Position numbers: made by a program
Origin: a virus
Lineage: Duplodnaviria; Heunggongvirae; Uroviricota; Caudoviricetes
Reading direction: 5' to 3' (one strand)
IMG/VR virus record: IMGVR_UViG_2671180275_000006
Length of the DNA stretch: 58,225 nucleotides
Shown here: positions 40,301-46,300 of the stretch, piece by piece
Position numbering within the stretch: position 1 is the first letter of the stretch
Layout of the letters: each line of letters opens with the position of its first letter

Positions 40301-43300
40301 GGGGAGCTGGTGTTTTGTCCTCGTCGCCAAACAGTATCCAGGTTGGTGAACATTGCAATACCTCGGCGAGGCGATGCAAATTTTGCCCGCGCGGGGCTGT
40401 ATGGTCACTTTCCCATAATGAAATTGATGAGCCAGATACGCCAGCAGCTTTGCTTAAACCGTTTTGACTTAAGCCTACCTGCTTACGTCTTTCTCTAATG
40501 CGTTGACCTAAAGTTTTCTCGTTCATATTTAGATATCTTAATAACCCTTGACTTGAGATTCCTTGAGTGATTAGCATTGAGAAAACTCAATATTGGAGGT
40601 GCGATGTTTAAATCAGACGTAATTAATTTTTACGGTACGAAAGCCAAAGTAGCGAAAGCTGCTGGCGTTGACCCATCTGCTGTTTCTCAATGGCAAGAGC
40701 TGGTTCCTGAAGGTCGCGCGATGCGTCTACAGGAGGCATCTGGCGGCGAGCTTCAGTATGATCCCAAGGTTTATGACGAATATCGTAAGACGAAGCGGGC
40801 GGGGCGGTTGAACAATGAAAATCACTCCTGAACAGGCTCGTGAGGCTCTGGATGCCTGGATATGTCGACCAGGAATGACACAGGAGCAGGCGACGATATT
40901 AATCACTGAAGCATTCTGGGCTTTGAAAGAGCGCCCGAACATCGATGTTCAGCGTGTCACAGATGAAGGTGGCGCGGTTGATCAGCGAGCGCTTGGCGTT
41001 AATCGAGTGAAGATATTCGAACGCTGGAAGGCTATCGACACCAGGGATAAGCGTGAAAAGTTCACGGCGCTAGTGCCTGCAATTATGGAGGCTATCCGGA
41101 TTAATGATTTCAGGTTGTATCGTGAAATTAGTGACGGAAAAAGCATCACGTACATGATCGCCGGGTTAAACAAAGAATATGGCGATGTGGTGGAGTCCGG
41201 ACTGCTTTTTGCTGATCCTGCCGTAGTGGATCGTGAAACTGACGAACTTATAGAAAAAGCAATTGCTTTCAAACTTGCGTATCGACAGCAATACCAACAA
41301 AAAGCTGGATGGAATTATGAGCCTTCTTTTTGCTGAACGCCCACTGGTTATAAACACACAGCTTGCGATGAAGATTGGCTTAAATGAAGCCATTGTGTTG
41401 CAGCAGTTGCATTACTGGTTGAGAGATACCAATTCCGGTATGGAATGTGATGGTGTTCGCTGGATTTACAACACAACGGAACAATGGCTGGAACAGTTCC
41501 CATTCTGGTCAGAGTCAACGTTAAAGCGCGCGTTTGCAAGTCTGAAAACGCTGGGGCTTTTGCGTTGTGAAAAGCTCAATAAATCAAAGCGCGATATGAC
41601 CAATTTCTACACGATCAACTACGGGAGCGAGCTTTTAGATGATGGCAAATTGAGCGAATCCATCGGTTCAAAATGCGCCGCTCCATCAGGTCAAAATGAC
41701 ACGATGGAAGAGGTCAAAATGAAACGCTCCATTGGTTCAAAACGATCCAATGTCATCGGGTCAAAATGGCCTGATGATCTTACAGAGAATACAACAGAGA
41801 TTACTACAGAGAATAAAAACACTTTTCGTCCGGAAGCTTCGCAACCGGACCCGCAGACGACTGAACAGGATTTTTTAACCCGGAACTCCGACGCGGTTGT
41901 GTTTAGTGCGAAAAAACGCCAGTGGGGTAGCAGGGAGGATTTGGCGTGTGCGCAGTGGATCTGGGGGCGGATCGTGGGCCTCTACGAACAGGCAGCCAGT
42001 GATGATGGCGAGATCATGAGACCAAAAGAGCCTAACTGGACTGTCTGGGCCAATGACGTGCGCACAATGCGGATGCTGGATGGCAGAAGCCACAGACAAA
42101 TTTGCGAAATGTTTGGTCGGGTTCAGCGAGATCCATTCTGGGTAAAAAACATCATGAGCCCGTCAAAGCTCCGCGAAAAATGGGACGAACTGGTCATCCG
42201 CCTGGGACGTTCACCTGTACAGCGTTGTGTTAATCATATTTCTGAACCGGATACAGAAATTCCGCCTGGTTTCAGAGGATAAGTGTTGATTTCAGGTCAT
42301 GAGGTAATTTTAAGGGGGACTTGTGGCAAAAGTTTTTACACAAGAAGAGCGGGAAAAAATTAAAGGGCAGGTGGTGGAACTCGTGCGCCAGAGCGGTCGT
42401 GAGACGTTACGGCAACTGGAAGCTAAAACAGGTGCGACTAGATATCTGATGAGCGTTCTTGCCAGAGAGCTGGTAGCCAGTGGCGATGTATACAACTCCG
42501 GCTACGGGTTATTCCCGTCTGAACAGGCGCGTAAGGACTGGCAAAACGCCCGCAAAAAACTCTCGAGGGCAAAGGTGAAGAAACCTGCTGTGGTTGATCC
42601 GGACCTTATCTGGTCATTACCTGACGGAGAAATACGCCGCTACGACAGTCGTCTAAACATAATCTGTCGCGAGTGCCGGAAGAGCGAAGTTATGCAGCGT
42701 GTTCTGACGTTTTATCAGGGGAATTATCGGGAGGTGATGCTGTGAGTACATCGGCTACCATTCTCGACATGTGCTGTGGCAGTCGCATGCTCTGGTTCGA
42801 TAAGAATGACGAATGGTCGATATTTAGCGATATCAGGAAAGAGGAACATTCGCTATGTGATGGACGTCACCCGATTATTAATCCCGACATTATCGCTGAT
42901 TTTCGTGCGCTGCCGTGGTTGTCTGCTTTGCATCAAAAGCAGACATTACCAGATTTAGACATCTGTTTCCGATAGCCCGTTCTGATGCTACACTTTTTGC
43001 TATTTTCATGAACCTCATAAACACATTTATGACTGTTGCTGATTTCAAACGCCCCAAATTGGAGCTCCCAAACGGGGCAAAAAAACTATTACTGCACTCT
43101 TGCTGTGCTCCATGTTCCGGTGAAGTGATGGAGGCGCTTCAGGCCTCGGGAATCGACTACACCATCTTTTTCTACAACCCGAACATTCATCCTCAGAAAG
43201 AGTATTTAATTCGTAAGGATGAGAATATTCGCTTTGCTAAACAACACGGCGTGCCATTTATTGATGCTGATTACGACACAGACAACTGGTTTGAGCGAGC

Positions 43301-46300
43301 CAAAGGAATGGAATGGGAGCCTGAACGAGGGATCCGTTGTACCATGTGTTTTGACATGCGTTTTGAGCGGACTGCACTGTATGCCGCTGAAAATGGTTTC
43401 AGTGTGATCAGTAGCTCACTGGGCATTTCACGCTGGAAAAATATGCAGCAGGTTAACGACTGTGGACGGCGAGCCGTCGCGCATTATCCGGGCATGGTGT
43501 ACTGGGATTATAACTGGCGAAAACAGGGCGGCTCTTCCCGCATGATTGAAATCAGCAAGCGCGAACAATTCTATCAGCAGGAATATTGTGGCTGCGTGTA
43601 TTCACTGCGCGATACCAATCTACACCGCAAATCTCAGGGACGCCCTCTAATCAAAATTGGTCAACTGCACTACGGTAAGGAAGGACAGGAATGATTTTAT
43701 ATTATGCCAACGGAGCGTAGCAGTGTTTCTATATATAGTACGCCTACCTTAATTTTCAAATAATCATGATTAATGAGCAGGTCATCAGTGCAAGCAATGA
43801 CCTGCTCATCTTGTTGAAATTAGAGGAAATCTTGCAGCCATGATATGGCTTAAAATAACGTTTGATTATTTTACCTGCTGTTTGTCCCTGGTTTAAAGTC
43901 GGTTGTCTGATTTGATTACGCGCAACTGACGCTTACGTATTGAAGTAACGAGCACGAAGACACATATTTATCAGTGCCTGTATACGTCAAGAGCAGGAGA
44001 TTTATGTGCTGGTTCTCAAATGCACGCTGGCTATTGTGGCTGTAATGGCAATTTATTGTCTTGTTATTGTTCTTATGGATCACCTTTCTGATTGATTTCA
44101 TATTGGCGAGGTAACGGTAGTTAAGTAGAATGGCTGCGGGTGCTTGAGGCTATCTGCCTCGGGCATGAACACCAACGGCAGATAGAGAAAAGCCCCAGTT
44201 AACATTACGCGTCCTGCAAGACGCTTAACATTAATCTGAGGCCAATTTCATGCTAGACACATGTAGGTTAGCCTCTTACGTGCCGAAAGGCAAGGAGAAG
44301 CAGGCTATGAAGCAGCAAAAGGCGATGTTAATCGCCCTGATCGTCATCTGTTTAACCGTCATAGTGACGGCACTGGTAACGAGGAAAGACCTCTGCGAGG
44401 TACGAATCCGAACCGGCCAGACGGAGGTCGCTGTCTTCACAGCTTACGAACCTGAGGAGTAAGAGACCCGGCGAGGGAGAAATCCCTCGCCACCTCTGAT
44501 GTGGCAGGCATCCTCAACGCACCCGCACTTAACCCGCTTCGGCGGGTTTTTGTTTTTATTTTCAACGCGTTTGAAGTTCTGGACGGTGCCGGAATAGAAT
44601 CAAAAATACTTAAGTAGCGCGCAGGGATAAGAGGGATGGTCCCTTAAAGGGGAGAGCTAATTATCCGGAAGGATTCTGATGATGAACATCGAAGAACTGC
44701 GTAAAATTTTTTGTGAAGATGGCCTCTATGCTGTGTGCGTTGAAAATGGAAACATTGTTAGTCATTACCGCATTCTGTGTTTGCGAAAGAATGGGGCTGC
44801 GTTAATTAATTTTGTGGATGCTCGGGTCACGGACGGATTTATCTTGCGCGAAGGTGAGTTTGTCACTTCATTACAGGCACTGAAAGAGATCGGAATAAAA
44901 GCAGGCTTTTCAGCTTTTGCAGAAGAATAAACTCATCTACAATCTTGCGCGGGGCTGAACTCCCGCTGAGTAACACCGTGCCACCGGAGAAAACCGATGG
45001 CACGCAACGTAAAATATTACAATTCTGATAATTCGCCCGTTCTTGTCTGCACGCACGAGCGGTATTCTCACGCATTCAAGTCTGAATGGTTCCAACACCC
45101 TCCATGCACTGAAGAGCAGGCTGAATGGATAATTCAGTGTTACCGCAGGCGCGGATACGAGGTTAAGAAAGCCCTTAGCCTCGACTACCGTCACTGGATA
45201 ATCTCAGTCAGATTGCCTTACTCCGAACGCCCACCACGTGCGTCCCGCACTTTCCAGCAACGGATCTGGAGGTAACGTGCGGGTATTACTTAGACCTGTT
45301 CTGGTGCCTGAGCTTGGGCTGGTGGTCCTTAAGCCGGGCCGTGAATCCATACAGATATTTCATAATCCTCGAGTGCTGGTGGAACCGGAACCAAAAAGCA
45401 TGCGTAATCTGCCATCCGGAGTCGTTCCTGCCGTTCGCCAGCCGCTGGCGGAAGACAAAACATTGCTGCCGTTTTTTAGTAACGAACGGGTGATTCGTGC
45501 TGCTGGCGGCGTTGGCGCATTGTCTGACTGGCTATTACGTCATGTTACATCCTGCCAGTGGCCTAATGGCGATTACCATCACTCTGAAACAGTCATTCAC
45601 CGTTATGGTACCGGCGCAATGGTGTTGTGTTGGCACTGCGACAACCAACTGCGTGACCAGACATCGGAATCACTGGATCTGCTTGCTCAACAAAATCTGA
45701 CAGCATGGGTGATTGACGTCATCCGTCACGCAATAAGCGGTACGCAGGAACGTGAATTATCTCTGGCTGAATTATCCTGGTGGGCGGTCCGCAATCAGGT
45801 GGCGGACGCGCTACCGGAAGCGGTATTACGTCGTTCGCTGGGATTACCAGCGGAAAAAATCTGCTCGGTGTACCGCGAGAGCGACATCGTACCGGGAGAG
45901 CAGACCGCCACCAGCATATTGAAACAACGCACAAAAAATCTTGCACCGTTGCCTTACGCCCACCAGCAACAAAAACTACCACAGGAAAAGACGGTGGTAA
46001 GCATCACCGTTGATCCAGAGTCTCCGGAATCTTTCATGAAGCTGCCTAAACGTCGCCGCTGGGTTAAGGAGAAATACACACGTTGGGTTAAGACACAGCC
46101 GTGTGCTTGCTGCGGTATGCCAGCCGACGATCCGCATCATCTGATTGGTCACGGGCAGGGCGGAATGGGAACAAAAGCACATGATCTCTTTGTGTTGCCT
46201 TTGTGCAGAAAGCATCACAACGAGCTGCATAGGGATACAGTGGCATTTGAAGAGAAGTATGGCTCCCAACTGGAGCTGATATTTCGTTTTATCGATCGCG

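Follow-up and report, generated by a model that had tools for sequence, protein, structure and literature searches.

A queH cassette in a Qin-type Escherichia coli prophage: a predicted second epoxyqueuosine reductase beside QueG

We analysed a 58,225-nucleotide stretch of caudoviral DNA (IMG/VR record IMGVR_UViG_2671180275_000006, hereafter the window) and focused on queH, a gene of the QueH family of epoxyqueuosine reductases, and on the truncated methyltransferase frame that lies directly upstream of it. A Qin-type lambdoid prophage occupies the window from ~34.07 kb to its end, and within it queH is found between a conserved DUF977/LygF gene and a hokD/sok locus. An original prediction, made from the sequence alone, had described this gene as a QueH/DUF208 moron in the nin region, next to a methyltransferase remnant. 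The features on which the argument turns are listed here by window position.

42742-42975, + strand: truncated small phage DNA methyltransferase open reading frame (ORF), 77 codons plus stop; alignment and profiles; pseudogene in RefSeq
42908-42914, no strand: recombination junction between methyltransferase DNA and queH-cassette DNA; blastn boundaries
42914-43700, + strand: core queH cassette (leader, putative promoter, coding sequence), ~790 bp, common to E. coli prophages; pairwise blastn boundaries
42921-42944, + strand: 9-bp perfect hairpin GTCTGCTTT-GCATCA-AAAGCAGAC at the 5' edge of the cassette; sequence and fold
42986-42994, + strand: putative extended -10 promoter element TGCTACACT (TGcTACACT), 43 nt upstream of the ATG; comparison
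43029-43694, + strand: queH, epoxyqueuosine reductase QueH, 221 amino acids (aa), RefSeq WP_001595803.1, from ATG to TGA 43692-43694; Pfam, PDB and RefSeq
43774-43808, + strand: 12-bp perfect stem-loop, arms TGAGCAGGTCAT (43774-43785) and ATGACCTGCTCA (43797-43808), then TCTTGTTG; sequence and RNA fold

The queH gene and its cassette

The family assignment of the original prediction is borne out. QueH matches Pfam PF02677 over its full length (E 1.9e-65; 220.7 bits, where the cut-off is 23.5; positions 1-174 of the 175 in the profile). It is also homologous to the Thermotoga maritima QueH of known crystal structure (7LC5; E 5.6e-22, residues 27-203 of the query with chain residues 4-178), and RefSeq names the identical protein 'epoxyqueuosine reductase QueH'. 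The motifs HSCCAPC, NPNIHP, RCxxC (here RCTMC) and YCGC are all present, with every conserved cysteine in place: C25, C26 and C29 in the first, C103 and C106 in RCTMC, C196 and C198 in the last. The residues of CCxP(C/D), RCxxC and YCGC are reported (Li et al. 2021) to bind a [4Fe-4S] cluster and an adjacent iron. The cysteines were aligned with homologues from T. maritima, Staphylococcus aureus and Listeria, three from gut contigs and six from proteobacteria; a large protein search gave close relatives only, and the diverse homologues were taken from phage-collection matches. The T. maritima enzyme has CCAPD where the window QueH and most of the family have CCAPC. Since every other aligned sequence (11 diverse homologues) has Cys where T. 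maritima has Asp13, CCAPC is the family norm and no deviation.

The proposed 221-codon frame from ATG 43029 coincides with the RefSeq gene. An in-frame ATG at 43008 was considered as the start and rejected, as other copies do not conserve it. Between the window queH and nine others of prophage, plasmid and chromosomal origin, the ratio of nonsynonymous to synonymous divergence (dN/dS) is 0.02-0.05 over dS values from 0.04 to 2.2, and the coding sequence has been under strong purifying selection. The start is conserved in 9/9 of these copies and the frame is open to its stop codon in 8/9, the ninth (Scandinavium) extending past the extracted coordinates. The proteobacterial QueH clade as a whole is highly conserved, with 75-97% identity between the window protein and the chromosomal QueH of Serratia, Erwinia, Photorhabdus, Pseudomonas and Sphingomonas and 78% to an Acinetobacter sequence. 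The gene carries no compositional signal, its content of G and C (GC) being 48.0% against a window average of 47.9%. These observations establish queH as an intact, full-length gene of the QueH family; activity of the protein on tRNA bearing epoxyqueuosine at position 34 (oQ34), without cobalamin, is predicted from homology.

Homology to plasmid copies covers much the same block, 42934-43723 in a Salmonella IncFII plasmid and 42966-43732 in a Klebsiella plasmid. Upstream of the ATG, six aligned queH copies are mostly dissimilar, the distant copies most so, and the longest stretch that is invariant in all six is TGATGCTA, within the motif TGATGCTACACT; a divergent plasmid copy has TGAATGCTAAAAT. 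This motif fits the extended -10 element TGn-TAnnnT and is the sole upstream block that is unchanged among the six copies, which come from different contexts. A count over 79 species-level loci from a GTDB scan gave a similar picture: TGCTAnnnT occurs between -70 and -15 of the start at 13 loci, in 12 of them at -37 to -44, and at none in two control windows further upstream, while the broader TGnTAnnnT occurs at 19 of the 79 as against 0 and 2 in the control windows. The conserved motif therefore provides good comparative support for a queH promoter, which we regard as putative.

Copies from EC958 and from the Salmonella and Klebsiella plasmids partly conserve the arms (GTCTG...CAGAC) of the hairpin at the 5' edge of the cassette. 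That hairpin is not followed by a T tract; it might be an insulator, an operator or a recombination scar. Beyond the gene, the original prediction had noted an 11-bp stem-loop; a perfect inverted repeat is indeed present, and its length is 12 bp. The RNA fold of 43690-43830 has an energy of -34.4 kcal/mol (z -2.1). The stem-loop is followed by a weak T tract and is kept in the Rac-type queH copy of strain 21F61, and a terminator scan made no call on it; it is a possible intrinsic terminator of the cassette variant found in the window. It lies in a 373-bp segment (43700-44073, from queH to hok/sok) that is shared with the Rac-type prophage of 21F61 and absent from the EC958-type arrangement, in which the hok/sok region comes directly after the queH stop codon. 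The same segment contains a promoter-like site on the - strand (43897-43868), and its right end is overlapped by a 61-codon - strand ORF (43916-44101) of doubtful reality.

The methyltransferase stub and the recombination junction

A truncated methyltransferase, in a GTG-initiated frame with an S-adenosylmethionine (SAM)-binding-like motif, had been proposed upstream of queH, and both parts of that description hold. The frame begins at GTG 42742, overlapping the DUF977 stop codon (GTGA), carries ILDMCCGSRMLWFD at residues 7-20 and ends with TAG 42973-42975. Its genuine methyltransferase part is ~42742-42912 (residues 1-57, with SAM-binding motif I); the tail, 42913-42975, is read-through into cassette DNA and makes up the last ~20 codons. 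Residues 1-57 share 59-64% identity with the 156-aa methyltransferase of Erwinia phage vB_EhrS_49 and with a 118-aa ORF of the E. coli phage PhiR42_1, which occupies the same position after LygF, and ILDMCCGS of motif I is common to all three. Similarity to full-length enzymes ends after ...ADFRALP (residue 57), and the stub lacks the catalytic DPPH (motif IV) and everything downstream, ~100 C-terminal residues.

Profile searches agree with this. The stub covers the N-terminal third of phrog_11564 (positions 3-61 of 117), PADLOC MTase_II (3-64 of 169) and the PADLOC orphan MTase (5-57 of 153); Pfam gave no match for the fragment, even at E 10. In a tblastn search, matches to the stub in 243 phage records also stop at residues 59-62. 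RefSeq annotates it as a pseudogene, 'methyltransferase, missing C-terminus', ending at 42927. Small DNA methyltransferases of these kinds (phrog_954/11564; PADLOC MTase_II and orphan MTase) are common at this position in enterobacterial temperate phages.

The junction can be placed closely: at the DNA level PhiR42_1 and the window are homologous as far as 42908, and from 42914 onwards the match is to the queH block of EC958 and O157:H7 Z887. By these blastn limits the abrupt change of sequence lies about 50 bp to the left of the ~42960 originally proposed. Methyltransferases of this kind occur without queH (PhiR42_1, Klebsiella phages, Erwinia phage 49). In turn, queH has no methyltransferase fragment beside it in EC958 and O157:H7 Z887, which show the commonest E. 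coli arrangement, and it stands alone on plasmids. Because each gene is found without the other, we conclude that the two were joined by a recombination that destroyed the methyltransferase. This event replaced the 3' two-thirds of the methyltransferase gene and left a dead N-terminal stub. The idea that queH might be the residue of a larger modification module is not sustained, since the two genes are independent and queH DNA took the place of the methyltransferase 3' end.

The description of queH as a moron is supported: it is a discrete insert between conserved phage genes and is absent from close relatives, namely PhiR42_1 and, by deletion, the BL21(DE3) prophage. Like lambdoid morons and lysogenic-conversion genes, it is a small insert that sibling phages lack and that comes with an element resembling a promoter, plus a hairpin in this variant. 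It differs from them in that the cargo is of a housekeeping, tRNA-modification type and no virulence or exclusion factor, and in that its composition is not atypical.

Distribution of queH and its relation to QueG

Among 5426 complete E. coli genomes, queH DNA is present in 995 (~18%), nearly always on the chromosome, and most matches span 42981-43700. The DUF977 gene and queH are contiguous in 956 of the 5426, for example in ST131 EC958 and O157:H7 Z887, and the stub-plus-queH arrangement of the window recurs in phage HannyBb and in 71 genomes, that of E. coli B REL606 among them. Carriers thus include ST131, O157:H7 and the evolution-experiment strain REL606, and strains without queH include K-12 and BL21(DE3). 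In BL21(DE3) (NC_012971.2) there is a clean 1361-bp deletion, equivalent to 42620-43980 of the window, in the same Qin-type prophage (extracted locus 1224-1486). It reaches from within the DUF977 gene, whose 3' end is lost, through the methyltransferase stub and queH to beyond the hairpin; REL606 retains all of these, and REL606 and BL21(DE3) form a natural queH+/queH- pair of B strains.

A tblastn search with QueH matched 305 plasmid records (Klebsiella 99, Escherichia 68). The plasmid copies on NZ_CP024167.1, NZ_CP089512.1 and NZ_CP075593.1 stand alone in unrelated contexts, one beside fecC/fecE and IS481, one beside TonB/TolA fragments and a TIR protein, and one in a CBASS-NACHT-dGTPase defence island. 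Beyond E. coli and E. albertii, the nearest genomic queH copies are not in this prophage context: Serratia queH lies by tonB with a conserved upstream region, and one Enterobacter copy is near icd. Adjacency to tonB was considered as a clue to origin and dropped, since it was seen at 7 of 80 loci, Serratia-like only (besides the TonB fragment at one Klebsiella plasmid copy). At the GTDB loci of Pseudomonas lundensis I31 and Bacillus subtilis SK7B5, the DNA upstream of queH closely resembles that of Serratia and Stenotrophomonas, respectively, which suggests that these two assemblies are mislabelled or contaminated.

The original prediction took the host enzyme to be QueG and the prophage gene to be auxiliary. 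This agrees with the genome survey, in which queG (identity at least 95%, coverage at least 80%) was found in 5426/5426 genomes. Because queG is present in all of them, prophage QueH would be a second epoxyqueuosine reductase and no replacement. E. coli QueG (yjeS) and QueH are predicted to carry out the same reaction, oQ34 to queuosine (Q34), in the same cells, but they have unrelated folds and cofactors. QueG is an enzyme with cobalamin and two [4Fe-4S] clusters (PMC4646009, PMC5175355), whereas QueH uses no cobalamin and is an iron-dependent, non-orthologous alternative (PMC5372724, PMC13443448, PMC6063277). The substrate pathway for queuosine in E. coli is established (PMC5372724); its final step depends on cobalamin, and K-12 queG knock-outs accumulate oQ (PMC4646009, PMC5175355). 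Coexistence of the two enzymes has a parallel in S. aureus, where their differing expression has been read as possibly reflecting cofactor availability (PMC13443448). Both S. aureus genes are chromosomal, whereas in E. coli the second enzyme is mobile cargo in ~18% of strains. The window gene is a full-length match to the QueH family, with all its conserved Cys motifs, and is distinguished by its place on a prophage, in a species with QueG in the core genome. Papers that cite Zallot et al. (2017) describe QueH as a non-orthologous replacement of QueG. To our knowledge, E. coli has no de novo cobalamin synthesis.

We consider it likely that the queH cassette is a self-contained cargo of ~0.8 kb that gives lysogens a second epoxyqueuosine reductase independent of vitamin B12 (cobalamin). 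In the lysogen the cassette would be transcribed from its own extended -10 promoter, and during lytic growth by read-through from pR together with the early-right operon; such co-transcription after induction is expected, as the scan showed no terminator on the way from the DUF977 gene to queH. QueH would then reduce oQ34 to Q34 on tRNA-Asp, -Asn, -His and -Tyr, and completion of queuosine would become independent of the B12 supply. We infer that the promoter is active, that lysogens express queH and that the enzyme works on E. coli tRNA, as we do any gain in fitness.

Several points weigh against this interpretation. Expression and activity of queH in E. coli are deduced from sequence, and only about a quarter of the prophages with a DUF977 gene have queH, which BL21(DE3) has lost. 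A scan with the sigma-70 consensus gave no promoter in 42960-43029, and the same scan, with terminators included, gave nothing relevant in 42900-43830; the scan missed the extended -10 because there is no -35. The promoter-like stretch of the original prediction accordingly stands on the comparative evidence for a conserved extended -10 and not on the consensus scan. The 5' untranslated region of queH is without a Shine-Dalgarno sequence, and the EC958-type cassette, in which the 12-bp stem-loop is absent, is without a terminator of its own. In a scan of NCBIfam release 20 at E 0.01 there was no match for QueH, nor for the methyltransferase stub or DUF977; for QueH the Pfam, PDB and RefSeq naming agree. 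Finally, oQ and Q are not known to differ physiologically, which makes it uncertain that carriers would benefit.

Some of these points would also fit a neutral passenger, a functional QueH that is redundant with QueG and hitch-hikes in a lambdoid prophage recombination hot-spot. The universal presence of queG, the deletion in BL21(DE3), the many alternative cargoes housed in the slot after DUF977 and the GC content, which is indistinguishable from that of the window, are all in line with this explanation, and the purifying selection seen here could have operated mainly in donor lineages. We nevertheless think it unlikely, as low dN/dS (0.02-0.05) is held across prophage and plasmid copies at dS 0.3-2, the promoter motif is conserved, and prophages, as well as over 300 plasmids of Klebsiella, Escherichia and Salmonella, acquired queH independently.

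A role that chiefly serves the phage itself is improbable. Expression from pR in lytic growth might keep tRNA Q-modified for late-gene translation, or alter a host response directed at tRNA, and queH does have the orientation of the early-right operon with no recognised terminator between it and DUF977; it is also present in a deposited phage, HannyBb, and phages are known to carry tRNA and 7-deazaguanine genes (PMC6884629). The same cassette and promoter motif are, however, found on plasmids and chromosomes outside any phage context, the lytic cycle is short relative to tRNA turnover, and QueH has no match among the PADLOC defence families. PADLOC likewise gave no defence family for DUF977, Rem or DUF968, and a function against phages or against defence systems is unsupported.

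Action on another substrate, such as 7-deazaguanine or another phage DNA modification, possibly with the neighbouring methyltransferase, is very improbable in spite of the methyltransferase remnant beside queH and the defence genes (CBASS, NACHT, dGTPase, TIR) beside some plasmid copies, as the methyltransferase and queH occur independently, QueH is 75-97% identical to ordinary chromosomal QueH, and neither the prophage nor HannyBb has an annotated DpdA/TGT-like, QueC/D/E or FolE gene. Those are the defining genes of the phage preQ0/archaeosine DNA-modification clusters, with which queH shares the wider queuosine/7-deazaguanine pathway. Among the viruses analysed by Hutinet et al. (2019), none was stated to have a homologue of QueA, QueG or QueH (PMC6884629).

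The identity of queH and of the stub is already known, both being annotated in RefSeq, where the identical protein is labelled QueH in hundreds of E. coli genomes. Among the papers that we could search, none dealt with QueH on an E. coli prophage or plasmid. In PHROGs the family (phrog_3217) is of 'unknown function' and its profile begins at QueH residue 34, and in HannyBb (PP925841.1, CDS0046; extracted locus 5709-6395) queH is labelled 'hypothetical protein' and called from the non-conserved upstream ATG. The point made here is modest and easily testable, and is not a new kind of system. A broader proposition, to which we give about an even chance, is that mobile queH is a lysogenic- or plasmid-conversion gene that rewires the tRNA epitranscriptome, such that ~18% of E. 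coli finish Q34 without B12 and strains without queH stall at oQ when B12 is scarce. If true, strains of E. coli would differ in tRNA modification in a way that has gone unrecognised, and no QueH would have been described before on a temperate phage that is functional. About one in five sequenced E. coli, major pathogen lineages included, carries this mobile and, by prediction, B12-independent alternative to QueG. Should queH be active, common laboratory strains grown in media free of B12 would have different oQ/Q ratios, with possible effects on how Asp, Asn, His and Tyr codons are decoded.

Prophage setting and neighbouring genes

The prophage adjoins rspB, on the ynfE side. The region of interest is 100% identical to E. 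coli S19-651, and the prophage early region is 98.5% identical to phage HannyBb over 13 kb. On the + strand the gene order is a cro-like gene, a YdaT-family gene, an O-like replication gene, DUF977/LygF, the methyltransferase stub, queH, hokD/sok, rem, DUF968/ydfU and the Q antiterminator gene. Lying between the replication genes and Q, the queH locus is the counterpart of the lambda nin region, where the original prediction had put it. The neighbouring features are as follows.

42323-42745, + strand: DUF977/LygF ('Ren-like exclusion protein') gene; Pfam PF06163 E 4.7e-29, phrog_142 E 7.3e-47
44138-44462, + strand: hokD/sok type I toxin-antitoxin locus; Rfam sok RF01794, 115 bits, E 6e-27; hokD annotated in RefSeq
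46310-47092, + strand: Q antiterminator gene; prophage gene order

DUF977/LygF is the conserved phage gene after which the cassette is placed, and hokD/sok is the next conserved element of the phage region downstream of queH. An Rfam scan of 42300-44700 found no riboswitch (preQ1 or cobalamin) and no other element near queH; apart from sok it gave an isrK-like match downstream of hokD/sok, at 44471-44552, which is sub-threshold (25.7 bits against a gathering score of 50, E 0.007). In the O157:H7 Z887 prophage (extracted locus 8899-10909) a DNA cytosine methyltransferase and a NgoMIV-family restriction endonuclease come directly after queH. Because the slot there holds restriction-modification genes in place of hokD, we regard the region after DUF977 as a hot-spot for cargo, and the alternatives seen in it include a methyltransferase, the restriction-modification system of O157 Z887 and relBE-type genes.

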